From: Candidatus Curtissbacteria bacterium RIFOXYA1_FULL_41_14
Lineage (GTDB): Bacteria; Patescibacteriota; Microgenomatia; Curtissbacterales; GWA2-41-24
DNA length: 64,000 bases
Assembly: GCA_001775095.1 (NCBI GenBank)
Contig: MFCA01000025.1
Location: 181,232-245,231 of the forward strand
Direction: 5' to 3'
Of the stretch, positions 34,804 to 57,170 are shown one piece after another. The notes beneath the pieces were generated by a model. The model did no database searches. It saw nothing but the letters and a program-made list of their open reading frames with translations, and was not told the origin of the DNA. Each line of letters starts with the position of its first letter. The stretch's first letter is position 1. The position numbers were made by a program, and so were the translations under genes.

Positions 34804-35229
34804 TTAGCGATAATCTTTTAAAGAGATCACTTTAATGTCTTTAATTTTCGCCTGGTGCTTTGGATTATCAGTAACCAAAACTGCATTTAACAATTTTGCC
34901 AAAGAAACAAAACACGCGTCGTAATAGGTAATTTTTGATTTTTCGCCAATTTTGTAAGTTTCTTCTGCCTGAACTGCACTTTCTGAAACAAATTTTACCG
35001 GCAAAGAATATAACGTGGCTAAACTTGTTTTGGCATCTTGGATTGTATAGTGCTTTCCAGTAAGTAAAGCGTTTCCGACTTCATATTTTGCAAGCTCTGG
35101 AGTAAATATTTCTATATTGCCTTTTTCTGCATCATTTATAATGGCATTTGCCTTGTCCAGACGCAGTTCGTCTTGGCTAGATAACCATTTAATGATAACT
35201 GAAGAATCGCAAATTACTTTTCCTTTCAA
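34804..35229 (-). CDS. vapC: PIN-domain ribonuclease toxin (VapC-like)
   Basis: VICDSSVIIKWLSSQDE...YDACFVSLAK...LVTDN, giving the PIN acidic residues D8, E and D/D. Overlaps the upstream antitoxin ORF by 4 bp. Confidence 0.75.
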   Translation of the reverse strand: MKGKVICDSSVIIKWLSSQDELRLDKANAIINDAEKGNIEIFTPELAKYEVGNALLTGKHYTIQDAKTSLATLYSLPVKFVSESAVQAEETYKIGEKSKITYYDACFVSLAKLLNAVLVTDNPKHQAKIKDIKVISLKDYR

Positions 35230-35603
35230 TGTCTTTGTCTATCTTCTGCAATAAATGCTGATAGATTACCTCTTTTTCCTTTAAGAGAGCGTGATTTTTC
35301 TATCATACGCCACAAATTACGCCAATAAATTGCGTTTAAATGGGAAAGTGATTTGGCTTTAACAGTTTTGCCCCCTCTGTATTCCTTCATACTTTGATTA
35401 GTTGATCTTAGTGCATCTTCGATTTCAAATTCTTCTAATTTCTTATTCATTTTTTCAAGGGTTCGGACATCAACGATGGCAATATCAGGCTTGTTGTTCT
35501 TTAAGACTACAATAGGTTGTTTGGTTTTTTTGACTTCTTCAAAGACATGTTTGTAGTTTCGTTGGATCTCGCGTATGGTGGTAGTTTTAGGGAAAGTAAA
35601 CAT
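35226..35603 (-). CDS. Phd/YefM-like antitoxin with a C-terminal extension
   Basis: The N-terminal TTTIREIQRNYKHVFEEVKKTKQPIVVLKNNKPDIAIVDVRTLEKM is Phd/YefM-like. Its stop overlaps the PIN gene start. Confidence 0.6.
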   Translation of the reverse strand: MFTFPKTTTIREIQRNYKHVFEEVKKTKQPIVVLKNNKPDIAIVDVRTLEKMNKKLEEFEIEDALRSTNQSMKEYRGGKTVKAKSLSHLNAIYWRNLWRMIEKSRSLKGKRGNLSAFIAEDRQRH

Positions 35604-35677: not shown

Positions 35678-36118
35678 ATGGCGGGACTTTTGGTTGGCTT
35701 AATTATTGTTGTCATAATGTTTGGTGCTGGTTTTTCAGTTTATTCAAAATTTTTATCAAACCAAAACATAATTTCATCCAGTCCGTCCCCAATTCAGGAA
35801 GTAAATATTTCAAGTGGTATTGCTGGAAAGATTTTACTTGGTCCTCAATGTCCGGCCGTACAAATAAATCATGAGGATCAGAATTGTGAACCTCGGCCGT
35901 ATCAAACAACGATTGTTGTTAAGACAATTGACGGAAGAAAAGTCACCGAGTTTAGTTCAAACATCAACGGCGAATTTAGGATAAACCTAGCGCCAGGAAG
36001 TTATCGGCTTGAGACCGCTGATCAATCGGAACTTCCTTATCTAACTCCAACTCCGGTTGATGTCGAAGTAAATAAATTTAAAGAAGTAACTCTGCGTTTC
36101 GATACAGGAATCAGATAA
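35678..36118 (+). CDS. Hypothetical secreted/anchored protein (N-terminal TM plus a beta-rich domain)
   Basis: N-terminal LLVGLIIVVIMFGAGF, a Cys pair (CPAV...NCEP), and a beta-strand-rich C-terminus. Confidence 0.4.
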   Translation: MAGLLVGLIIVVIMFGAGFSVYSKFLSNQNIISSSPSPIQEVNISSGIAGKILLGPQCPAVQINHEDQNCEPRPYQTTIVVKTIDGRKVTEFSSNINGEFRINLAPGSYRLETADQSELPYLTPTPVDVEVNKFKEVTLRFDTGIR

Positions 36119-46988: not shown

Positions 46989-47465
46989 CTAGTCACTTAA
47001 GATAATTATCCCTTCCCTCCAGCCGCCGGGGTCTTTGATTAATTGGCCGTCCTTTTGATAAATATGTGAGGTAATAGCAATCGACTTATTTTGATAGGAG
47101 GATGGAATTTGCCAGTCGAGTTTATACGGAGCTGATTTTACCTCTCCAATCATCTGCCATTTACCATCAGTATAAGTTTTGACCCAAAACTGTACTTTAT
47201 CAACTTTTTGCGGCTCGTCGACCGACAGTTCAATTAATAAGTTGTTACTTCTGACGATATCGCCTGCTTGTGGATTGACAAGGATACCGCCAGTTGCATT
47301 TTCCTGTTGATTTTGCTGGATAACTGTCGTCGGTCTTGTCAAAAGCGGCCTGACGATCAGAAAAACTACAATTAAAGCGAAAGCGGCCAATGCGACAACT
47401 CCGAAAGGATTAATCGGCCAGGCTTCTCTTCCTTTTTCTATCGGCCCGCGTTTTTCTGATTCCAT
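46989..47465 (-). CDS. Hypothetical membrane-anchored protein with a beta-rich ectodomain
   Basis: N-terminal TM VVALAAFALIVVFLIV and a C-terminal ~110 aa domain (FWVKTYTDGKWQMIGEVKSAPYKLDWQIP). Confidence 0.4.
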   Translation of the reverse strand: MESEKRGPIEKGREAWPINPFGVVALAAFALIVVFLIVRPLLTRPTTVIQQNQQENATGGILVNPQAGDIVRSNNLLIELSVDEPQKVDKVQFWVKTYTDGKWQMIGEVKSAPYKLDWQIPSSYQNKSIAITSHIYQKDGQLIKDPGGWREGIIILSD

Positions 47466-47539
47466 ACTTTTATATAATTTTATCTTGTTTTAGCCCACTG
47501 TCAAATTAAAAGTTTTTGATATAGAATACTTTCGCAACA

Positions 47540-49882
47540 ATGCTTAAATTTACTTTGATAAAAAAATCACTGTTTAAAATACTCTCGATCTTCATTATTT
47601 TTTTAACATGGTTTATCAGACTGGATATCTTCATAGGAGATGTAACGATCTTTCTTATCAAAACGATTCTTTTATCAATCGGGAGGCTTCTTAAAAAATT
47701 AAACTTAGATTTACGAAAAAGGGCGCCAGCAGTATTTCACACGCTTGACAGGCTAATCCATCATCCAGTAGTCGGGCAAGATCGCAGTTTTAAAGTAGGC
47801 TTGGCCACAATTTTTATCCTGATTTTCGCAATCTGGTTCACTACGCGTGATTTACCAAGCCCAAAACAACTTGAGACAAGAAAACTACCCCAAACCACCA
47901 AGATTTATGACCGAGATGGTGAGTTACTTTACAACATTTATTCTGATCAAAATCGCACTGTAGTGCCGCTTTCAGAAATCCCCAATTCGCTAAAGCAAGC
48001 AACAATTGCCATTGAAGATAAAGACTTTTATAAACATAAGGGCTTTGATATCTATGGTATTGCCCGGGCAACCAGAAAAACGGTTTTTGAAGGAAATCTG
48101 CAAGGAGGTTCAACTATAACTCAGCAATTAGTCAAGAGCGCTTTTCTCTCACCTGAGAGGACAATAAGCCGAAAAATCAAGGAACTTTACCTTGCTTTTA
48201 GAGTAGAAATGGCCTTCCCGAAAGACCGGATCTTGGAAATGTATTTAAACCAGGTTCCATACGGAGGAACGGCTTGGGGAGCGGCAGCAGCAGCCGAACA
48301 ATATTTTGGCAAAGATGTTAAAGATCTAACTCTAGCGCAGTCAGCCCTGCTGGCAGGTTTACCAGCGGCTCCTACCTACTATTCGCCTTTTGGACAAGAT
48401 TCCAAACGGGCTAAAGAAAGACAGAAACAGGTCCTAAGAAGAATGGTTGAGGATGGCTATATCTTAAAAGAAGAGGCGGACGCTGCAGCAGGTGAAGAGC
48501 TTTCATTCAAACCCTCAGCGACTGACATCAAAGCTCCCCATTTTGTAATGTATGTCCGCGAGTATTTGGCTGAAAAATATGGTGAAGCAGTAGCTGCTCA
48601 AGGGGGACTTAAGGTGACAACTACCTTGGATTTAGATATTCAGGAAAGCGCGCAGAAAATTGTTAAAGATAACATAGATAAACTCAAAGTGCATCGAGTC
48701 TCAAATGGTTCGGCATTGGTGACTAAACCAAAAACTGGGGAGATTCTGGCAATGGTCGGATCAAAAGATTTTTTTGACACTTCAATCGACGGCAATGTCA
48801 ACGTGACTATTGCTTCGCGTCAACCAGGATCTTCAATCAAACCGGTTAATTACGCAACTGCACTTGAAAGAAGACTAATAACGCCTGCAACAATCATCAT
48901 GGATGTCCCAACCACTTTTTCCGGCGGGCCAGTCCCTTATCGACCAGTTAATTACGATGGCAGATTCCATGGCCCCGTGCAGGTTCGCTTTGCGCTCGGC
49001 AACTCATACAATATTCCGGCTGTAAAAGTTTTGGCCTTAAACGGCGTTGGCGAAATGATTAAGATGGCTAGGGAAATGGGTATAACAACCTTCACCGATG
49101 AATCGCGTTATGGACTTTCTCTAACGCTAGGCGGCGGAGAAGTAAAAATGACCGAAATGGCACAAGCGTTTGGAGTTTTCGCAAACGAAGGTGCCAAGGT
49201 TGACGTAACACCGATTCTCAAAATCGAAGACTCAAACGGAAAAACTTTGGAGGAGTTTAAACCAAAAACCGGCAAAAAGGTCCTTTCGCCGCAAACTTCT
49301 TTTCTGATTTCCTCGATTTTATCTGATAATAGTGCCAGAACTGCCGCTTTCGGACCAAGTAGTAAATTGGTGATTAAAGATAAAACTGTAGCAGTCAAAA
49401 CAGGTACTACTGACGATAAACGCGATAATTGGACAATCGGCTATACACCCAGTTACTTTGTAGCCACTTGGGTTGGCAATAATGACAATACTCCGATGAA
49501 TCCTGCTATTTCTTCTGGTATTACCGGTGCAACGCCGATTTGGAATGAAATTATGACAGATGTTCTAAAAGACAAAGTTAATGAAGCATTCAAAGTGCCA
49601 ACTGGAGTTACGGGCATGGAAATCTGCTCAGTAACCGGAGGAGCTAAAAACGAGGCATGTCCAGGGCGCTTTGAGTATTTTATCGCCGGAACTGAACCGA
49701 AAAAAGATACTTTCGCCAAAGCCAAAGTTTGGATTGACGTGACAACCGGCCAAGTCGTTGAACCTGGATCGCCAAATGCAGAGGAGAAAGAAGAAGTAGT
49801 TCTGCAAGATCCCTATTCCAAGAAAGACTTCTGCGTGACATGCCCAAGGCCCCAAACTTCACCATCACCGGCGCCGGGATAA
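47540..49882 (+). CDS. Class A penicillin-binding protein (transglycosylase plus transpeptidase)
   Basis: GT51 motifs (IAIEDKDFYKHKGFD, ...RKTVFEGNLQGGSTITQQLVK) and transpeptidase motifs SSIKP (SxxK), SYN and KTGT. Confidence 0.9.
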   Translation: MLKFTLIKKSLFKILSIFIIFLTWFIRLDIFIGDVTIFLIKTILLSIGRLLKKLNLDLRKRAPAVFHTLDRLIHHPVVGQDRSFKVGLATIFILIFAIWFTTRDLPSPKQLETRKLPQTTKIYDRDGELLYNIYSDQNRTVVPLSEIPNSLKQATIAIEDKDFYKHKGFDIYGIARATRKTVFEGNLQGGSTITQQLVKSAFLSPERTISRKIKELYLAFRVEMAFPKDRILEMYLNQVPYGGTAWGAAAAAEQYFGKDVKDLTLAQSALLAGLPAAPTYYSPFGQDSKRAKERQKQVLRRMVEDGYILKEEADAAAGEELSFKPSATDIKAPHFVMYVREYLAEKYGEAVAAQGGLKVTTTLDLDIQESAQKIVKDNIDKLKVHRVSNGSALVTKPKTGEILAMVGSKDFFDTSIDGNVNVTIASRQPGSSIKPVNYATALERRLITPATIIMDVPTTFSGGPVPYRPVNYDGRFHGPVQVRFALGNSYNIPAVKVLALNGVGEMIKMAREMGITTFTDESRYGLSLTLGGGEVKMTEMAQAFGVFANEGAKVDVTPILKIEDSNGKTLEEFKPKTGKKVLSPQTSFLISSILSDNSARTAAFGPSSKLVIKDKTVAVKTGTTDDKRDNWTIGYTPSYFVATWVGNNDNTPMNPAISSGITGATPIWNEIMTDVLKDKVNEAFKVPTGVTGMEICSVTGGAKNEACPGRFEYFIAGTEPKKDTFAKAKVWIDVTTGQVVEPGSPNAEEKEEVVLQDPYSKKDFCVTCPRPQTSPSPAPG

Positions 49883-49942
49883 ACCCTATTCGTCATTCTG
49901 AGCGAAGTCGAGTCCTAATTCGACAAAGCGAGGAATCTTGAC

Positions 49943-50515
49943 TCAATCTAAAAATCTAAAGGTTGCGAGGATTTGGCTCAAATTTTGGCCGGATATATTC
50001 ATTATTCTATCGCTTGAAATAGAAATTATTACATGGCTTTCTGAAATTTTTATGGCTTTTCTACTTGCTACCGTTATTTCTTTAGCGTTAGGATAGTAGT
50101 CTTTTCTTATTTTATCGACTGTATCGCCTTGTGCTCCAAAACCGAATATAAAAACTTCGTTTCCTTTATGATCACCGTCGCTGTGATCTGCTTTTGTACC
50201 TTCCATAAAAAAACTAACGTTTTCTTCTTGAGGAAGCCAGGAGGGACTTTCATAAAACCAGTTAGGAGGATATTTGAAGACAAAGTATTTGTTTTCATAG
50301 ATTTTCCAATTTGCTGTTTCCGCGGAACCATTCGGTTCACGGCCAGCGTCTGAAATTGGACTGGGTTGGGCTTGAACCGACGGTTCGGAACTTGGAGTTG
50401 ATTTGTTTTTGATGTTTTTGAGGAGAGTAGTGTTGAAATAAAGAGTTAATGCCACGCCAAGAGTAATCAGGGCGAGAATAATCATTACCGGAGGAGTTAA
50501 ATATCCCCTTCTCAT
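49943..50515 (-). CDS. Paralog family member 1: secreted/anchored protein with a conserved signal anchor, an ETANWK-YPxxW motif and a C-terminal QILATFRFLD
   Basis: MRRGYLTPPVMIILALITLGVALTLYFNTTLLKNIKNKSTPSSEPS... is nearly identical at DNA level to the N-terminus of 53138..53791. The C-terminal motif is shared with all three paralogs. Confidence 0.6.
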   Translation of the reverse strand: MRRGYLTPPVMIILALITLGVALTLYFNTTLLKNIKNKSTPSSEPSVQAQPSPISDAGREPNGSAETANWKIYENKYFVFKYPPNWFYESPSWLPQEENVSFFMEGTKADHSDGDHKGNEVFIFGFGAQGDTVDKIRKDYYPNAKEITVASRKAIKISESHVIISISSDRIMNISGQNLSQILATFRFLD

Positions 50516-50557
50516 ACTTTCATCATTTCACTTCCGTGAGAGAGAGTCAAAGGAGAC

Positions 50558-50971
50558 TTACAATAATTCCGCGGGGGTAACCGGTAACAGTTTTTCTATT
50601 TTGGAAAAATCAGTGTCATAAGTAACTAGCTTTACATCACTAGGTACTTGAGTGACAATCAAACAGTCTGCATATTTAATATTGTGTTTCTTATAAAGTA
50701 AAAGGGCTCTTCTGGTGTCTGTTTTTTCGATTATTGTTAAATTTCTCAAAGAAATCAGGTTGTCGGTATCAGAAAGCACTTTATCTTTTGGAAATTTGTA
50801 AAGCTTAATCAGTACAAACTGGATTTCCAAAACTACTATATTGGAAGTGTAAGAACGGATTTTTCCTTCTTCTCCGGCTTCAAAAAATTTTTGACATTCT
50901 TCGAATTTTTGTTTGTCGTCAGCAGTTAAAAATCGGATAAAGACGCTCGTGTCTATAAAAACTTTTGTCAT
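50558..50971 (-). CDS. vapC: PIN-domain toxin (VapC-like); start placed at the internal ATG (MTKVFIDTSVF...) just downstream of the antitoxin stop
   Basis: VFIDTSVFIRFLTADD...NIVVLEIQ...ADCLIVTQVPSDVKLVTYDTDF, the PIN acidic residues. The longer track ORF (to 51031) overlaps the antitoxin. Confidence 0.7.
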   Translation of the reverse strand: MTKVFIDTSVFIRFLTADDKQKFEECQKFFEAGEEGKIRSYTSNIVVLEIQFVLIKLYKFPKDKVLSDTDNLISLRNLTIIEKTDTRRALLLYKKHNIKYADCLIVTQVPSDVKLVTYDTDFSKIEKLLPVTPAELL

Positions 50972-50975
50972 TTTC

Positions 50976-51203
50976 TTATCTGGAGTAATCGATGTATTCG
51001 CGAATTTTTTCTGCAGGAATAGGCTTAGCAACTTTGTATTTACCAGCCAGCGACATAAGTTTGGATTTTAATGGTTCGATAATTATTTTTGATTGTTCAA
51101 CCTTTATAAGTGCTCTACCATGTTTTGTAAGCCCTGCTTTCTTGCGGATCGAAACAGGTATGTGGACTTGGAATTTAGGAGTAATTGTGGTTATTGTTTC
51201 CAT
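50976..51203 (-). CDS. vapB: AbrB/SpoVT-type antitoxin (VapB-like)
   Basis: 75 aa; TITPKFQVHIPVSIRKKAGL... resembles a swapped-hairpin AbrB domain. It lies immediately upstream of the PIN gene. Promoter: TTGACA-N17-TACAAT with the inverted repeat TATTGAC...GTCAATA over the -35 (51214-51245). Confidence 0.6.
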   Translation of the reverse strand: METITTITPKFQVHIPVSIRKKAGLTKHGRALIKVEQSKIIIEPLKSKLMSLAGKYKVAKPIPAEKIREYIDYSR

Positions 51204-51319
51204 ATCAATACATATTGTATGTTATTGACTTTTTATTGTCAATAATTAAACAACATCAATTACTTAATTTAATCGAGGAATTTGCTTGCAGTGCTTGCCC
51301 TGAGTTTACCGAAGGGAGA

Positions 51320-52195
51320 TTATTCGAATCTGAAGGTGGAGAGGATTTGGTCAAAAATTTCTTGCCCTTTAAGTATTTCTTTTTCGTCCCGGGATTGAGT
51401 TTCCAATTCTAATATTAGAATCCGCTTAAAATCTTTCGAGAAAAGATCTACAGCAGTGATATGTTCAGAACCTGCGCGAGGAAGCGGTTGAATCCCTTCT
51501 TGCCCATTCACTCTTACAGTCTTTATCGTGTAAGGTAACTGTTCGAAATCATAAAGGTCAGCAAATGGTTTTCCAGTATTATTATTATAATTCCCTTGAT
51601 TTATGAAACTTAATAAATATGCACCTTGTGGGTCTTCTATTTCTTGAACTGACCTACTCCCAAAGATTTGGATAGATTTTTGTGTCCAACTTGTAGGATA
51701 TTTGAAAGAGTACGAATTGTCTTGAGAGGTGTATGTTTTCCAATTTGCAGTTTCGTCGGATTGATTTTGCTCAATAAGCTTTAAAAGTATTTGTTTGTCG
51801 GTGTCATTTATCACACCATCCGCATCTAAATCAGCAAGCGGATGATAATTTTTTTGCCCTCGACTAGTTCCTAAGGCAGTATTAAGTAAATTAAGATCTG
51901 CAACATTACACATTCCATCTGAGTTGACATCGCAAGGTGCAATATCTAACGATTCTTGGTTGATGACTTCGGTAAAAGATTTACCATCAGGGGTTTTACA
52001 TTGTCTAGGGTAGGTTAAAATGATTCGGTTGCCGGCTCTGGCACAATCTTCAAATGAATTTATTGCGGGACTTGGGGTTGGTTGGTTCTTGATGTTTTTG
52101 AGAAGATTGGTGTTGAGGAAAAGAGTTAATGCAACGCCAAATGTAATCAGGGCGAGGATAATAAGTACTGGCGGCGTTAGATATCCCCTTCTCAT
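51320..52195 (-). CDS. Paralog family member 2 with an extra module containing two dockerin-like Ca-binding repeats
   Basis: Same N-terminus (MRRGYLTPPVLIILALITFGVALTLFLNTNLLKNIKNQPTPS) and same C-terminus (FDQILSTFRFE). The middle carries DVNSDGMCNVADLNLL and DLDADGVINDTDKQILLKLI, which follow the dockerin type I DxNxDGxxNxxD pattern. Confidence 0.6.
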   Translation of the reverse strand: MRRGYLTPPVLIILALITFGVALTLFLNTNLLKNIKNQPTPSPAINSFEDCARAGNRIILTYPRQCKTPDGKSFTEVINQESLDIAPCDVNSDGMCNVADLNLLNTALGTSRGQKNYHPLADLDADGVINDTDKQILLKLIEQNQSDETANWKTYTSQDNSYSFKYPTSWTQKSIQIFGSRSVQEIEDPQGAYLLSFINQGNYNNNTGKPFADLYDFEQLPYTIKTVRVNGQEGIQPLPRAGSEHITAVDLFSKDFKRILILELETQSRDEKEILKGQEIFDQILSTFRFE

Positions 52196-52240
52196 ACTTT
52201 CATCATTTCATTTCCTCAGAGAAGAGTCAAAGTGAGGAAG

Positions 52241-52280
52241 AGCCAGAGAGTCAGAAAGTCAGAAAGTCAGAAAGTCAGAG
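52241..52280. repeat. Tandem octamer repeat (AGTCAGAA x4-5) in the leader between the PIN stop and the paralog-2 start
   Basis: agccagag agtcagaa agtcagaa agtcagaa agtcagag. Confidence 0.7.
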
Positions 52281-52283
52281 AGG

Positions 52284-52700
52284 TTAGAGACGAAAAGTTT
52301 CGAAGAGATCTTTTGGTGTTAAAGCAATCGAGGGCTTTAAAAATTCGGCTACTTTTTTGTTTAAAAAGTCTTTTTTATCCAAAGTTACCAAAAAATCAGA
52401 TTTTGATTGTTTTGCTTCGGCTAAAATAACCGCATCTTTTTCGACAATTATCTTTTTCGCTTGTCTGATTAACTCTAAGTCTGGTTTTTGATCTAAAATA
52501 TGGGTTTTCTCTACCAACTTAAAAAAACGCTCAAGTGCATATGACTGCAATTTTTTTCTGATATTTCTTTCAGTTTCGGTCAGAACCAAGTGCGAAACAA
52601 CCAGCTTGATATTTTTATAGGTAAAAAGTTTAGCCGAGCCGCCTGTTGGAGAATTAGCAGCAGTGAATAGAACGCTTGAATCAATAAAGACAGACTTCAT
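52284..52700 (-). CDS. PIN-domain toxin (VapC-like)
   Basis: MKSVFIDSSVLFTAAN...VVSHLVLTETERN...FLVTLDKKDF (PIN). Its start overlaps the antitoxin stop by 1 nt. Confidence 0.7.
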   Translation of the reverse strand: MKSVFIDSSVLFTAANSPTGGSAKLFTYKNIKLVVSHLVLTETERNIRKKLQSYALERFFKLVEKTHILDQKPDLELIRQAKKIIVEKDAVILAEAKQSKSDFLVTLDKKDFLNKKVAEFLKPSIALTPKDLFETFRL

Positions 52701-52963
52701 TATAGTCTATCTTCTTTTTGCCACTTTTCGATTTCCTTTTTAGTGAATTCTCTCGTTAGAGGCAGAAGGGTAGGATCGATAAACGTCTTGCCGTAAATTT
52801 TTCTAATTTCTTCTTCAAGTTTCGTAAGATAATCAATATCGACAAGGGCCGCGCGAGGCGTACCGCCTTTAGTAAGTATGATATATTTTTCCCCTTTGAC
52901 CTTTTGGGTCAGGCTGCTTAAATTGCTTCTGACTTTCGTTATCGGAACGATATCGATATTCAT
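52700..52963 (-). CDS. Phd/YefM-family antitoxin
   Basis: 87 aa; ITKVRSNLSSLTQKVKGEKYIILTKGGTPRAALVDIDYLTKLEE is the Phd/YefM fold pattern. Confidence 0.65.
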   Translation of the reverse strand: MNIDIVPITKVRSNLSSLTQKVKGEKYIILTKGGTPRAALVDIDYLTKLEEEIRKIYGKTFIDPTLLPLTREFTKKEIEKWQKEDRL

Positions 52964-53137
52964 ATTTTAATTATCCAACACGTACAAAAAAATGTCAAGT
53001 ATTATGTACATTATACTGTCATTCTGAGCCTTTCGCCGGTCACTCTGAATCCTTCGATTGTCATTCTGAACGTAGTGAAGAATCTCAGGGTAAACTCCGT
53101 AAAGGGTCTCAAGATAAACTCCGCGAAGAATCTTGAT

Positions 53138-53791
53138 TCAGTCTAAAAATCTGAACGTTGAGAGGATTTGGTCAAAAACTTGCTCATGATTACCCTGAAA
53201 ATCTAAATTGGGATAACTAATCATATATTGATTGCTGTTATGATTAACATAAACTCTAGCTTCTTTTCTGCGGGGTCCTTCGGATTTTTCAGTTGTTATA
53301 TTAACAACACCTTTCTCACCTGCAACTTCGAAACTTGTGAAGGTGTCGTATTTTGTAGATTTTGGTAATGGTCCGTAATCGGGGTCTTCAGGTATTGGTT
53401 GAACATAGACATAAAAATCCGCTGGTAGAACATCACCAAAAAAACAATCTGCAAGTGCCGTTTTATTTACAAAAAGATAGCCTCGAATACCCTTGTCGCA
53501 AGGTGGAGTTTCATTATCGTAAACAAACCAACTGGAAGGGTACTTGATCGAGAACCCCAACTGGGTGTTTGTATATGTTTTCCAATTTGCTGTTTCCGCG
53601 GAATCATTCGGTTCACGGCCAGCGTCTGAAATTGGACTGGGTTGGTCTTGAACCGACGGTTCGGAACTTGGAGTTGATTTGTTTTTGATGTTTTTTAGAA
53701 GATTTGTGTTGAAATAAAGAGTTAATGCCACGCCAAGAGTAATCAGGGCGAGAATAATCATTACCGGAGGAGTTAAATATCCCCTTCTCAT
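53138..53791 (-). CDS. Paralog family member 3 (same signal anchor, ETANWKTY...KYPSSW motif and C-terminal FDQILSTFRFLD)
   Basis: The first ~60 aa are nearly identical to 49943..50515. The central ~120 aa are divergent. Its 3' flank repeats the 3' flank of paralog 1. Confidence 0.6.
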   Translation of the reverse strand: MRRGYLTPPVMIILALITLGVALTLYFNTNLLKNIKNKSTPSSEPSVQDQPSPISDAGREPNDSAETANWKTYTNTQLGFSIKYPSSWFVYDNETPPCDKGIRGYLFVNKTALADCFFGDVLPADFYVYVQPIPEDPDYGPLPKSTKYDTFTSFEVAGEKGVVNITTEKSEGPRRKEARVYVNHNSNQYMISYPNLDFQGNHEQVFDQILSTFRFLD

Positions 53792-53853
53792 ACTTTCATC
53801 ATTTCACTTCCTGTTTTTAAACACAATTGGCATAGTGAGAATCTAATCAATAT

Positions 53854-53916
53854 TGTCATTCCGAACTTGCTTCGGAATCTAACTCCCGAAGTGGGAAGTT
53901 GGAAGTGAGAATGTAG
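53854..53916. repeat. TGTCATTCCG hairpin element (TGTCATTCCGAACTTGCTTCGGAATC ... GTGAGAATGTAG) in the divergent promoter region
   Basis: Inverted repeat ATTCCGAA cttgc TTCGGAAT. Same terminal motif as the elements at 39751, 49886, 53025, 58984 and 63449. Confidence 0.55.
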
Positions 53917-54079
53917 ATATTGTGGTGGGATGTGGGAAGAAAACAAAATCCCACTTCTCATATCATTAATCCTTTAATCCCATTTCTCACCTCTCACTTC
54001 ATAGATTCTGGATCCTGAATCGAGTTCAGGATGACAAAAGGGCATAGGTTTTGGAACCGTTTCATACTATAATTTGCTC

Positions 54080-55567
54080 ATGGTGAAACGAATATACATT
54101 ACTACTGCGATTCCGTACGTTAATGCAGCGCCGCATATTGGTTTTGCTTTGGAGGCCGTGCAGGCGGATTGTCTGGCGCGGTTCTATCGAGCGATTGGCT
54201 ATGACGTTTATTTTTCAACTGGAACGGACGAGAACAGCCTCAAAAATGTCCAGGCAGCGGAAGCTGAGGGTATTCCCGTCCAAAAACTGGTCGATAAATA
54301 CGCCAAACAGTTTGAACATCTGAAAGGGGCTTTAAATCTCTCCTGGGATGTCTTTATCAGAACCAGTAACCAGACACACTTTGTGGGTGCCCAGAAACTA
54401 TGGAGTCTTTGCAACAAAGATATTTATAAGAAGAAATATCGGGGCCTTTATTGCGTTGGCTGTGAATTGTTTTACTCCCCTGGCGAACTGATTGACGGAA
54501 AGTGTCCTGAGCATCAAACGATACCGGAGGAAGTCGAAGAAGAAAATTATTTTTTTGCTCTCTCAAAGTATCAAGAATATCTGGAGAAATTGATTGCCAC
54601 GGATAAATTGCGGATTACGCCGATAAGTCGGAAGAATGAGGTTTTGTCATTTATTAAAAGAGGGCTTGAGGATTTTAGTATTTCAAGATCAGTTGCGAGG
54701 TCAAGAGGCTGGGGAGTACCGGTCCCTGGTGACCAGAGTCAAGTTCAATATGTCTGGTTTGATGCCTTGACTAACTACCTAACAGCACTGGGTTTTGGGA
54801 ATGATGAAACTCTATACAAAAAATATTGGGCTGATTCCCCTAGATCCACTCCAGGAGTGAGCTTAGTTACATCCCGGCACACTCCGGGAGTGAACAAAGA
54901 CCGAGTAACTCGCCTGCATGTCATCGGTAAAGGCATTATCAGATTTCATGCAATCTATTGGCCGGCCATGCTAGCTTCAGCCGGACTTCCCCTGCCAAAT
55001 GAGGAGTTTGTCCATGGCTACATTACAGTAGAAGGACAAAAGATTTCCAAGTCACTTGGAAATGTAATTGATCCTTTCGAATTAACCGAAAAATTTGAGG
55101 TTGATCCTGTCCGCTACTTTCTGCTTAGGGAAATTCCTGCCTGGGGCGATGGTGATTTTTCGATTATCAGATTTAAAGAGCTTTACAATGGCGAACTGGC
55201 CAATGGTTTGGGAAATTTAGTGGCCAGAGTAGCTAGACTTTGTGCGGATGTGAATTTGAATTTACCGTCGAAAAAGAATTTTAAATTTAAAAAAGTGGTC
55301 AGTGACAACCTAAAAAACTTCCGTTTTGATCTTGCGTTACTTTCTCTTTGGGACGATATTTCTTCTCTTGATAAAAAAATAAATGAGGAAAAACCTTGGG
55401 AACTTGAGGGTAAAACCCTGAAAAAAGCAATTTCACCCATTGCCCAACAAATCCGCGAGGTTGCTTTTAATTTAAGTCCGTTTTTACCGGAAACTTCTGA
55501 AAAGATCATTGAACACTTTACTGGCACGGTTAAACAACAAGCTCCGCTCTTTCCCCGCCTTCACTAA
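54080..55567 (+). CDS. metG: Methionine--tRNA ligase (catalytic core) with an in-frame repeat-encoded insertion; likely leaderless (TATAAT at 54068-54073)
   Basis: HIGH motif PHIGFA and KMSKS as KISKSLGN, with a zinc-knuckle-like C..C..C region. The track ORF starts at the TTG at 54074, and the ATG at 54080 is preferred. Insertion: DSPRSTPGVSLVTSRHTPGVNKDRVTR, just before the conserved HVIGKGIIRFH. Confidence 0.9.
   Translation: MVKRIYITTAIPYVNAAPHIGFALEAVQADCLARFYRAIGYDVYFSTGTDENSLKNVQAAEAEGIPVQKLVDKYAKQFEHLKGALNLSWDVFIRTSNQTHFVGAQKLWSLCNKDIYKKKYRGLYCVGCELFYSPGELIDGKCPEHQTIPEEVEEENYFFALSKYQEYLEKLIATDKLRITPISRKNEVLSFIKRGLEDFSISRSVARSRGWGVPVPGDQSQVQYVWFDALTNYLTALGFGNDETLYKKYWADSPRSTPGVSLVTSRHTPGVNKDRVTRLHVIGKGIIRFHAIYWPAMLASAGLPLPNEEFVHGYITVEGQKISKSLGNVIDPFELTEKFEVDPVRYFLLREIPAWGDGDFSIIRFKELYNGELANGLGNLVARVARLCADVNLNLPSKKNFKFKKVVSDNLKNFRFDLALLSLWDDISSLDKKINEEKPWELEGKTLKKAISPIAQQIREVAFNLSPFLPETSEKIIEHFTGTVKQQAPLFPRLH
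54838..54912. repeat. Palindromic mini-element inside metG (CACTCCAGGAGTG ... CACTCCGGGAGTG ... GAGTAACTC)
   Basis: cactccaggagtg at 54847-54859 and cactccgggagtg at 54880-54892. The same 13-mer palindrome occurs in lepA. Confidence 0.65.
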
Positions 55568-55590
55568 AGTTTCGGCGGGCAAGCTAGAAT

Positions 55591-56268
55591 ATGACTGATA
55601 AGACTAATAAGACAAAACTTTTCGTTTGGGATTTTCATGGAACTTTAGAGGAGGGTGTCGAGATAGGTTTTTTTGAAATTTTAAAAAAACTTGCCAAGAA
55701 ATTTAAGGCTGATAGAAAGATTACACTTTTTGAGGTCAGGGAAAAATACGGAATAACCGTTGCTGAATATCTGAGATTTTTTTTCCCAAAAGCTAACATT
55801 CTCCAAATTAAGAAAATGATGGAGGAGGTCGCCGAAATTCAAAATCAAAACCATCTCAAAGAATATGTCAGGCCTGCTCCAGGAGCCATTGAGGTTTTAT
55901 CAAAAATCAAAAAGGCCGGGTATGAGAATATTGTGGTTTCAAATTCGCACCCTAAGCATATCGAATTTCTAATCGATATTGTCGGAATGAAAAATCTGAT
56001 TAGCCGAGTTTTTGCGGTTGACCGGCATTACAGCCATAGAAAACAGAATCCGACAAAAGAAAAGGTCAAGATTTTCAAAATGATTATCAAACAAAAAAAC
56101 TTGAAGGCCAGACAGCTAATTACAATTGGAGATAAAGCAACTGATGTCAATGCTGGAATTTTGGCAGGAGGGACAACCTATCAGTATCTTCATAAAGGAT
56201 TTCCGATTGATGGGACAGAAGCAGACTATAAAATTCACGATCTTAGAGAGATTTTGGGGGAAATTTGA
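55591..56268 (+). CDS. HAD-superfamily hydrolase
   Basis: Motif I FVWDFHGTLEEG (a DxHGT-type start), a C-terminal ITIGDKATDVNAG (motif IV-like) and a capping region. Confidence 0.65.
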   Translation: MTDKTNKTKLFVWDFHGTLEEGVEIGFFEILKKLAKKFKADRKITLFEVREKYGITVAEYLRFFFPKANILQIKKMMEEVAEIQNQNHLKEYVRPAPGAIEVLSKIKKAGYENIVVSNSHPKHIEFLIDIVGMKNLISRVFAVDRHYSHRKQNPTKEKVKIFKMIIKQKNLKARQLITIGDKATDVNAGILAGGTTYQYLHKGFPIDGTEADYKIHDLREILGEI

Positions 56269-57170
56269 TGCTAGTTGATAGTCACGCTCATCTAGACTCA
56301 GTCGAGGATCTTGGGACCGTCCTCGGCCATGCCAGGTCTGAGGGAATTAGCGAAATAATTACAGCCGGAACTTCGATTGAATCGAGCAGAAAGTGCGTGG
56401 AAATTGCAGAACAACGCAGAATAGGTACGCGGATATACGCAACGATTGGTATTCACCCTCAAGATGGAGAAAATGAAATAAAGAATCTCGGTTTGTATCA
56501 ATGTATTAATTCATTGATACAAATCACTAAGACTTCTGACAGAGTAATTGGAATTGGGGAAACAGGATTGGATTATTACGAGACAGGCGACACGAAACAA
56601 GTAACAAGTAAGGATGATAAAAAAAATCAGAGAGAATTATTTAGAGAACAGGTAAAACTTGCGGTGCAGCTAAAACTACCGCTTGTCATTCATTGCCGTA
56701 ATGCGTGGGAGGAGACCTTTAGTTTACTGACAAGACATAATCATTATTCTTCGAGTGGAGCGAAGCGGAATCGAGAAGTTCCGATAAAGAAGTTCTCGAC
56801 AAGCCTTTCGACCATGAGCTCAAGACCGAATGGCTCGAACAATAAGTTAACAGGTGTTTTTCATTCATGGACTGGAGATTGGAACGCGGCAAGAAAAGCT
56901 TTAGATCTCGGTTTTTACATCTCTTTTTCCGGAATCGTCACTTTCAAAAATGCTCAAGAAATCCAGGAAGTTGCTCAAAAAGTGCCTCTGGATCGAATAC
57001 TACTGGAGACTGATTCCCCATATCTTTCTCCAGAACCGCTTCGTGGAAAAACAAATGAACCGAAAAATGTTAAAATAGTGGCTCAGTTTGTTGCCGATCT
57101 TCGGCATTTGTCTTTTGAAGAGATAGCGGGAATTACATCGGAAAATGCGGGGAGGTTGTTTGGAATTTGA
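56265..57170 (+). CDS. tatD: TatD-family metal-dependent hydrolase/DNase with a ~35-aa insertion
   Basis: MMLVDSHAHLDS, IGETGLDYY, PLVIHCRNAWEE, and a C-terminal LLETDSPYLSPEP. The insertion (HYSSSGAKRNREVPIKKFSTSLSTMSSRPNGSNNKL) contains DNA related to the GAGCGAAG...GGAATC repeat family (about 56750-56860). Confidence 0.85.
   Translation: MMLVDSHAHLDSVEDLGTVLGHARSEGISEIITAGTSIESSRKCVEIAEQRRIGTRIYATIGIHPQDGENEIKNLGLYQCINSLIQITKTSDRVIGIGETGLDYYETGDTKQVTSKDDKKNQRELFREQVKLAVQLKLPLVIHCRNAWEETFSLLTRHNHYSSSGAKRNREVPIKKFSTSLSTMSSRPNGSNNKLTGVFHSWTGDWNAARKALDLGFYISFSGIVTFKNAQEIQEVAQKVPLDRILLETDSPYLSPEPLRGKTNEPKNVKIVAQFVADLRHLSFEEIAGITSENAGRLFGI

Follow-up and report, generated by a model that had tools for sequence, protein, structure and literature searches.

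The superintegron of Vibrio and other mobile regions may, according to one proposal, be stabilised by toxin–antitoxin (TA) modules (Iqbal et al. 2015, as cited in PMC12548467), in ANME-1 they cluster in variable hot spots (PMC13385816), and reduced-genome bacteria have been hypothesised to largely lack such TA-type systems (PMC12455944). Here, we take up a single islet in a 64-kb stretch of Candidatus Curtissbacteria bacterium RIFOXYA1_FULL_41_14 (contig MFCA01000025.1; "the window" is this whole stretch), in which three paralogous genes for exported proteins, which we call c1, c2 and c3, alternate with two predicted type II TA operons in the interval between the genes for a class A penicillin-binding protein (PBP) and methionyl-tRNA synthetase (MetRS). 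How did such genes come to share an address, and does the company that they keep matter? The host, an uncultured groundwater bacterium, is one of the Microgenomates, within the Patescibacteria or candidate phyla radiation (CPR), whose genomes are tiny and have little room for accessory DNA. The parts of the islet are of known kinds, and its TA pairs are ordinary at the level of superfamilies; what recurs in relatives well above chance is the alternation of family genes with TA modules.

On the TA side, the pairs in the window resemble described type II systems (VapBC-like, and Phd/YefM with PIN) in their antitoxin-then-toxin order, their expected domains, their acidic residues and their palindromic promoter-like sites. 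In the superintegron and in TA-rich hot spots, unrelated TA modules are likewise scattered among the small accessory genes of a recombination-prone array. Our interval, however, holds no integrase-sized open reading frame (ORF) and no attC-like repeat (the repeat search returned only the heads and tails of the paralogs and repeats that look like repetitive extragenic palindromes, REP), and its repeated homology comes from the 5' and 3' ends of the paralogous genes, not from attachment sites.

On the protein side, c1–c3 are new members of a known, very large and functionally uncharacterised Pfam family, PsbP_2 (PF18933), with which they share a W-x-x-Y...(F/Y)S-x-KYP-x-x-W hairpin and a C-terminal helix motif; they differ from it in that c1 has diverged beyond the reach of the Pfam model, all three add a lineage-specific, homogenised anchor head, and c2 adds a Cys module and a dockerin. 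Among proteins of the Mog1/PsbP fold (PsbP/CyanoP of photosystem II, and Mog1), PsbP has a first hairpin that theirs resembles, but matches to Pfam PsbP and NCBIfam PSII_PsbP are weak and local, identity is 10–18%, and the host is a non-photosynthetic CPR bacterium. The mycobacterial proteins Apa, MTC28 and LpqN are exported as well, and the Protein Data Bank (PDB) entries of Apa and MTC28 call them proline-rich, much as c1–c3 have a Pro/Ser segment before their domain; these proteins, however, come from a different phylum and have no detectable sequence relationship with ours, and we know of no array or TA context for them. Finally, residues 89–140 of c2 score above the cut-off for type I dockerins of the cellulosomal kind and contain two Ca-binding repeats, but this dockerin has an anchor on one side and a PsbP-like domain on the other, and the ORFs of the locus, in which no dedicated cohesin search was made, include no cohesin or glycoside hydrolase.

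Our proposal is that the islet is a recombination-prone array of surface-protein genes that captures selfish TA modules and keeps them, and we put its probability at roughly 0.6. The finding bears on how CPR bacteria vary the surface that they show to hosts and phages, and this family is one of their largest uncharacterised families of exported proteins. Its genes lie in arrays that differ between close species, their heads and bodies have been swapped, and in the sampled genomes the arrays are a preferred address of TA modules.

TA genes beside the family genes

The genes for PBP, MetRS and TatD, usually with a HAD hydrolase, are syntenic in some 20 Curtissbacteria-type genomes (the Curtissbacteria orthologs flanking the interval are 71–88% identical for PBP and 65–76% for MetRS), and what lies between PBP and MetRS differs in almost every one. 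The interval is empty (55–346 bp) in the loci that we label L009, L012, L013 and L018; it holds one paralog in L020 and L023, only a 48-aa remnant of a head in L015, and an AbrB-PIN pair alone, its antitoxin 74% identical to that of the window, with a head-like remnant in L016. Elsewhere it is filled by a paralog with MazE-Fic/Doc (L011, L021), two paralogs alternating with two MazE-Doc pairs (L014), three paralogs with one MazE-Doc pair (L010), paralog, MazE-Fic, paralog (L058), paralog, Phd-ParE, paralog (L057), or unrelated genes (L019:7599-9892, L022:8461-9927, L044:2457-3290). The islet is a variable accessory region between two conserved core genes. The initial annotation was to fall if the proteins belonged to a well-known enzyme family and the locus did not vary among relatives; what we found is an uncharacterised family in a hypervariable interval whose copy number and content vary strongly, from zero to three paralogs and with PIN, Doc or ParE modules. 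Among the unrelated genes are a 488-aa ORF found in both L019 and L022, with a FAD-binding domain in that of L019, and an ORF resembling S-adenosylmethionine (SAM) methyltransferases in L019 and L044, that of L019 being cyclopropane-fatty-acid-synthase-like.

Within this interval, TA modules occur almost only alongside paralogs or paralog remnants, and in the loci selected by MetRS together with the window a TA module stands in seven of the eight junctions between consecutive family genes, all seven of them in the PBP-to-MetRS interval. Does the pattern extend beyond one interval? A metagenome collection was scanned with the two family motifs only; the 80 best loci were kept, 78 of which have a complete family gene, and all of their ORFs were searched with iterated hidden Markov models (HMMs) of 13 TA component families. 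Of the 65 TA genes in the 78 loci, 57 lie within 600 bp of a family gene, in a zone that makes up 24% of the non-family sequence; this is an enrichment of about 20-fold, with TA genes in 26 of the 78 loci and a binomial p of 8e-27 that overstates independence, the TA genes being paired. TA density is about 5 per 10 kb in the 600 bp beside family genes of the sampled loci and about 0.07 per 10 kb in background CPR DNA (423 kb of other sequence chosen by MetRS, with 3 TA genes and 7 family genes). Across the sampled Microgenomates loci, the local enrichment beside family genes involves diverse TA modules.

The arrays themselves reach seven or eight family genes, with TA pairs interleaved in, for example, L069, L075, L103, L113, L117 and L120; the largest (L103:4755-12100) packs seven or eight family genes into 7.3 kb, interspersed with two TA pairs, AbrB-PIN and, in the opposite orientation, Doc-AbrB. 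TA genes lie on the same strand as the family genes in 38 cases and on the opposite strand in 9, and in 16 cases a co-oriented toxin gene immediately precedes a family gene, the stop of the one lying -4 to 105 nt from the start of the other. TA modules are also found downstream of family genes or on the opposite strand. Our literature searches found no paper that links the PsbP_2-type family with TA modules in CPR bacteria.

The pairing that inflates the p value is the first of several points that weigh against our proposal. A second is that the TA HMMs were seeded from neighbours of family genes, which favours the near set, and we therefore ran a Pfam control on small ORFs. Among 150 small ORFs no more than 1.2 kb from family genes, this control recovered HicA 8 times, PIN 6, nucleotidyltransferase 5, Fic 4, MazE 4, BrnT, HicB, ParE and Phd 3 each, and HEPN, HepT and CopG 2 each; among 150 distant small ORFs, no TA family was matched by at least two ORFs, in a list confined to families with at least two, which single distant TA genes could escape. 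Third, 16 of the 52 junctions in the metagenome loci contain TA genes and 36 do not, and two-thirds of the family loci have none, so TA modules are not needed to keep arrays. Fourth, in the 423 kb chosen by MetRS, none of the seven family genes has a TA neighbour. Fifth, the 80 loci are the best matches to c3, and the result may hold only for Curtissbacteria-like Microgenomates. Last, the shared orientation and the tiny gaps between toxins and paralogs could reflect functional coupling instead.

Paralogs with conserved ends and mosaic histories

What are the proteins in these arrays? The initial annotation described three minus-strand paralogs with a common anchor, an ETANWK(T/I)Y...KYPxxW motif and a conserved C-terminus, and the ORF listing (47–57 kb) and alignment bear this out: c1, c2 and c3 encode 190, 291 and 217 aa at 49943-50515, 51320-52195 and 53138-53791, residues 1–42 are 83–86% identical, the motif is in all three, and the C-termini read (F)(D/S)QIL(S/A)TFRF. 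Pfam PsbP_2, with a cut-off of 27 bits, recognises c3 (29.2 bits), just misses c2 (26.4) and does not match c1, and a family HMM built from homologs, leaving out the window sequences, fits all three (E = 2.4e-75, 1.1e-33 and 5.8e-39, the last being that of c1). Residues 66–190 of c1 fit this HMM when taken alone (E = 2e-17); the middle of c1 alone is not significant. The NCBIfam PSII_PsbP equivalog, with a cut-off of 60, gives c2 20.5 bits and no match to c1 or c3, so none of the three is a PsbP ortholog.

The family is vast. A homology search returned 236 relatives, the named ones almost all from Patescibacteria/Microgenomates, some called "PsbP-related protein" and several with a PsbP_2 domain; a profile search of 1.84 billion cluster representatives (50%-identity clusters) gave 49,165 matches at E no greater than 1e-3 and 23,899 at E no greater than 1e-10. 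Many of the best matches (P0182–P0304) are long proteins of 330–980 aa with 2–6 tandem PsbP-like domains, so the domain has been repeated within genes as well as between them. In an alignment of 52 members, W70, Y73 and T212 are invariant, E66, T67, K71, T72, Y84, P85, I209, L210, S211, F213 and F215 are at least 90% conserved, and the roughly 110 residues between the two motifs can hardly be aligned.

No family member has a solved structure detectable by sequence, and the informative route was comparison of folds. In its AlphaFold model (mean predicted local distance difference test, pLDDT, 87.2), c3 has a transmembrane helix (8–33) and a compact alpha/beta domain joined by a disordered Pro/Ser linker; in this domain, ETANWKTY..KYP forms the first beta-hairpin and FDQILSTF the last helix. 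The model of c2 (pLDDT 80.4) shows this anchor too, and its PsbP-like domain (153–291, above 90) repeats the succession of strands and helices seen in c3. The two dockerin repeats and the Cys pair that the initial annotation read in copy 2 are present (Table 1): the repeats, of the type DxNxDGxxNxxD, are visible as DVNSDGMCNVAD and DLDADGVINDTD in a region of low model confidence, and the two-Cys module (48–75) is confidently modelled as a helix and three strands (pLDDT 83–90). We conclude that c1–c3 are extracytoplasmic PsbP-like proteins of predicted Mog1/PsbP fold, membrane-tethered or possibly cleaved after a signal peptide, and not enzymes, in keeping with the secreted or surface type first proposed; judging by fold and topology, they would most likely serve as tethered binding modules at the cell surface. 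Many family members begin with M-x-(K/R/Q)-G-(F/Y/S/L) and a hydrophobic stretch, which resembles a prepilin (class III) signal, and others have long low-complexity N-terminal tails. Type IV prepilin-like processing at MRRG|Y was rejected as a family feature: Glu is absent from position +5, and in many members such tails take the place of this start.

The history of the genes looks different on the two sides of the ETANWK motif, at which we split each protein to compare the halves separately. The heads of c1 and c3 are 95–96% identical and their bodies 15–16%. Their shared 5' DNA, first put at about 180 nt, in fact extends over 246 nt at 96% identity, with codons 1–28 identical and 3 synonymous and 4 non-synonymous changes in codons 1–70, and this identity collapses abruptly right after the ETANWK codons. 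The head of c2 differs from those of c1 and c3 by 9–10 synonymous and 5–6 non-synonymous changes in 42 codons; judged by these counts, the c2 head is older. The likeness of the c1 and c3 3' flanks, also claimed at the outset, holds as a number (82% over the last ~60 nt and flank), but it is the start of a REP-like repeat and not a duplicated gene end.

Comparison with other genomes tells the same story of discordant halves. Full-length relatives of c2 are 58% identical to it overall, with 87–96% in the head and 26–29% in the body (P0013, 96% over 151 aa and 29%; P0017, 87% and 26%), and with P0121 the relation is reversed (head 31%, body 72%). For c3, four proteins (P0002, P0004, P0005, P0006) match at 26–30% in the head and 55–65% in the body, and the few relatives of the c1 body (P0178, P0179) have heads unrelated to that of c1. 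Two paralogs of another species (L057) each contain a stretch of c2 DNA at 85% identity, the second that of the Cys module (51962-52075) and the first that of the dockerin (51729-51958), so modules have been reassorted between paralogs. A variant in the population (L001:8120-8290, L002:5180-5299, against window 52961-53240) is identical through c3 to the tail motif, then switches to other tail codons (ILSTFKFLD, with KFLD for RFLD), lacks the REP-like array of about 115 nt and rejoins at the Phd promoter, a switch that places a breakpoint inside the conserved tail of c3.

By these sequence comparisons, the histories of heads and bodies are discordant, with apparent breakpoints at the two conserved motifs: the paralogs are mosaics. 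The heads look as if they had been homogenised within one genome by gene conversion, and the bodies look like older, exchanged lineages. In other loci, 12 within-array pairs were usable, and heads are clearly closer than bodies in 6 of them as opposed to 14 of 300 control pairs, a suggestive but thin sign that heads may be homogenised there too. P0003, which has a c3-like head and another end, is a frameshifted low-complexity artefact and was not used. The layout of conserved head and tail around a variable middle, which the initial annotation saw as a property of this locus, is real as mosaicism; since the motifs are near-invariant in 52 diverse members, however, conserved ends and a variable middle are mostly a hallmark of the whole family and not a cassette design of this locus. 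The term "diversifying" was not borne out: the bodies have ordinary orthologs in other genomes at 55–72% identity, and they look reassorted, not hypermutated. We also rejected hypermutation by a diversity-generating retroelement, the template repeat of which was not found; a search of 49500-54200 gave no direct repeat of the template/variable kind, and a screen limited to the PBP-to-MetRS interval gave no ORF of reverse-transcriptase size.

An explanation and its competitors

How might such an islet come about? Because their homologous segments are repeated, arrays would recombine and take up foreign DNA especially often, with the conserved ETANWK and tail motifs supplying short homology for the breakpoints. 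Heads (5' leader, anchor, linker and extra modules) would be homogenised by gene conversion and bodies swapped between relatives, and selfish TA cassettes that landed in the arrays would be retained, their loss being penalised. As a side effect, a TA module between direct repeats may disfavour collapse of the array by head-to-head recombination; by analogy with the superintegron, it is a reasonable inference that TA modules stabilise the array. One could go further and imagine that an ultra-small bacterium, probably living attached to a host, varies its surface repertoire by exchanging cassettes in these arrays: heads and motifs would be recombination handles for swapping whole binding domains from paralogs or taken-up DNA, and TA operons would be co-selected "locks" against collapse, perhaps coupling expression of the surface proteins to TA state via read-through. 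We regard this larger picture as speculative and rather doubtful.

What if the TA modules do nothing for the arrays at all? The interval and similar arrays could simply be permissive, with paralogs and TA modules as independent passengers, an account that differs from ours only in denying the stabilising effect. Unrelated genes do occupy the same interval of L019, L022 and L044, the TA genes come from at least eight families, which speaks against a specific partnership, most junctions in the metagenome loci join family genes with no TA module between them, and the G+C content of the islet (36–38%) is below that of its flanks (40–44%). Mere passengers, however, sit less easily with an enrichment so local that 57 of 65 TA genes are within 600 bp, with the predominance of co-oriented TA genes (38 to 9), or with a partition of the interval in which TA modules appear almost only with paralogs or their remnants. 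We hold passive co-location to be unlikely, although it is the competitor that we take most seriously.

The coupling could also be functional, antitoxin, toxin and downstream paralog forming one operon, so that a surface protein is tied to an autoregulated TA promoter (for example, for switching under stress or phage attack), or the paralog is a third TA component. The 16 toxin genes that directly precede a family gene would fit, as would the gaps of 42 and 88 nt between the PIN genes and paralogs of the window; no terminator-like site was found between these genes, so read-through from the TA promoters is possible, and each of the two antitoxin genes is immediately preceded by one of the two best promoter-like sites of the locus (11 of 12 consensus positions). 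Yet many unrelated TA families occupy this position, which means no co-evolving partner, two-thirds of the family loci do without TA genes, and TA modules also lie downstream of family genes or opposite to them. Moreover, c1 and c2 have a promoter-like element of their own, the ~40–66 nt upstream of the paralog being conserved across species whatever type of TA module precedes, and the paralog protein is exported, whereas the toxins are cytoplasmic. A three-gene module strikes us as improbable.

Could the islet instead belong to defence? PsbP-fold proteins might be immunity proteins or decoys against envelope-targeting effectors or phage, in arrays like orphan-immunity clusters, with the TA modules acting by abortive infection; the arrays do vary between strains and species, and TA modules are common in defence islands (PMC13385816). 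The fold matches of the c3 model, however, are generic (10–13% identity, with PsbP, Mog1 and mycobacterial envelope proteins scoring alike), the interval has no gene for an effector or secretion system, and the enormous family, often with 2–6 domain repeats, is unlike typical immunity proteins. PADLOC models gave no convincing match to any of the seven islet proteins, only a marginal one of c1 to PDC-S15 (E = 0.004, 14 bits). A defence or immunity island is very improbable. That the alternation is unreal, a chimeric contig built from repeated heads and tails, is hardly credible and effectively refuted: several contigs from other samples do end within the repeats (at 53140, 53214 and 51786), but others span the locus at 99.9–100% identity, and the same architecture has been assembled in other species with different sequences.

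If it is true that TA modules protect or regulate these arrays, the arrays would be an integron-like solution without an integron, and they would offer a way to follow how the surface of uncultured episymbionts varies from strain to strain. If it is not, family genes would still serve in practice to mark the accessory hot spots of Microgenomates genomes.

Anatomy of the islet

Both gaps between the paralogs are filled by intact-looking, predicted type II TA operons, AbrB-PIN and Phd-PIN (Table 1). Their domains, by Pfam and NCBIfam, are those that the initial annotation assigned, and the operator-like promoter that it gave each pair is matched by a sigma-70-like site that overlaps or abuts a palindrome. 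The AbrB-type antitoxin scores below both profile cut-offs, and its 74%-identical ortholog adjoins a PIN gene in L016. Acidic residues of the PIN domains, assigned by position and motif, are D7, E49, D102 and D120 in PIN1 and D7, E43, D90 and D108 in PIN2; the NCBIfam VapC equivalog scores 25 bits against a cut-off of 80, so the toxins are assigned at superfamily level only. For PIN1, the ATG at 50971 is the most probable start codon, in preference to the TTG at 51031. Tandem duplication of a unit of TA module plus paralog was rejected: the two antitoxins do not share a family, and L014 has two Doc modules that are divergent. A third pair in the window, at 34804-35603 on the minus strand and away from the PsbP-like genes, consists of overlapping genes for a Phd-like antitoxin (125 aa) and a PIN toxin (141 aa), with a small membrane-anchored protein encoded divergently from it at 35678-36118.

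Table 1. Features of the islet and its borders, in window coordinates; promoter-like sites are matches to the sigma-70 consensus only
Feature	Position	Strand	Remarks
PBP1A, class A penicillin-binding protein, 780 aa; left boundary core gene	47540..49882	+	Transgly and Transpeptidase (Pfam, identical gene in L003)
Paralog c1, 190 aa	49943..50515	-	signal anchor, S/P linker, divergent PsbP-like domain
Putative gene-conversion tract, c1 copy	50290..50535	-	20 nt upstream and codons 1–75; 96% identical to 53566-53811
c1 promoter-like site	50522..50550	-	TTGACT-17-TGaAATGAT, end 6 nt before ATG
PIN1 toxin (VapC-like), 137 aa	50558..50971	-	Pfam PIN 56.5 bits; 4-nt gap to antitoxin stop
AbrB/MazE(SpoVT)-type antitoxin, 75 aa	50976..51203	-	MazE_antitoxin 19.5 bits (cut-off 24.7); TIGR01439 AbrB 23.7 (cut-off 28.3)
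TA1 promoter-like site	51214..51245	-	TTGACA-17-TACAAT, overlapped by palindrome TTATTGAC-N8-GTCAATAA
Paralog c2, 291 aa	51320..52195	-	signal anchor, two-Cys module, dockerin, PsbP-like domain
c2 type I dockerin, residues 89–140	51776..51931	-	two Ca-binding repeats; Pfam Dockerin_1 28.9 bits (cut-off 22.9)
c2 two-Cys module, residues 44–76	51968..52066	-	INSFEDCARAGN..YPRQCKTPDGKSF; kept in several relatives; no Pfam family
c2 promoter-like site	52202..52230	-	same element as that of c1
8-nt tandem repeat	52244..52279		CAGAAAGT x4.5, between PIN2 stop and c2 promoter-like site
PIN2 toxin, 138 aa	52284..52700	-	Pfam PIN 31.2 bits; TIGR00305 29.1 (cut-off 29.15); 1-nt overlap with antitoxin stop
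Phd/YefM-type antitoxin, 87 aa	52700..52963	-	PhdYeFM_antitox 31.2 bits (cut-off 29.8); TIGR01552 21.5 (cut-off 20.8)
TA2 promoter-like site	52970..53017	-	TTGACA-17-GATAAT and adjoining 20-nt palindrome
REP/MITE-like repeat array, after c3	53018..53135		motif GTCATTCTGAGC; absent in variant L001/L002
Paralog c3, 217 aa	53138..53791	-	signal anchor, S/P linker, PsbP-like domain
Putative gene-conversion tract, c3 copy	53566..53811	-	246 nt at 96% identity to c1
Methionyl-tRNA synthetase; right boundary core gene	54074..55567	+	divergent from c3; Pfam tRNA-synt_1g on identical gene

All three paralogs have a common leader, GGAA(G/A)TGAAATGATGAAAGT, before their ATG (50516-50537, 52196-52217, 53792-53813), and it holds a mini-ORF of four codons (ATG ATG AAA GTA TGA) whose stop overlaps the start codon of the paralog. 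Since the -10-like AATGAT ends 6 nt before the ATG, the paralog mRNA could be nearly leaderless. Copy number of the CAGAAAGT repeat is polymorphic in the population, with one unit fewer in contig L004. The GTCATTCTGAGC motif of the REP-like (or, in the terms of miniature inverted-repeat transposable elements, MITE-like) array occurs also at 49892-49903, 53855-53866 and 54024-54035 in intergenic parts of the islet; 5 of the 11 matches in the window fall in this 4-kb locus, and chance alone would give about 4 across all 64 kb. Spurious or extended ORFs of other CPR loci run through the element and translate it as "...ILR(F/Y)AQNDN".

The assembly can be checked against independent contigs from other samples, which span the whole locus at 99.9–100% identity: three are fully identical, and L004 differs by five single-nucleotide polymorphisms and one 8-nt repeat unit. 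Supposed strain variants of 180 and 207 aa were rejected as alternative start calls at Met11 in the same genome (99.9–100%). By tblastn, the 64-kb window holds no paralog beyond c1–c3, and 47000-57000 has no Rfam match among intergenic RNA elements. Carriage by a phage or mobile element was rejected: no relative of the family was found among 2.9 million viral contigs, no tRNA gene was found in the window, and no ORF between PBP and MetRS has the size or the domains of an integrase, every non-overlapping ORF of at least 100 aa being accounted for.

Just outside the islet, the gene adjoining PBP1A (46989-47465, minus strand) encodes a protein of 158 aa that combines a bacterial Ig (Big_7) domain with an anchor at its N-terminus. 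It, too, is a small tethered surface protein, but a conserved one, syntenic in Curtissbacteria at 55–83% identity.

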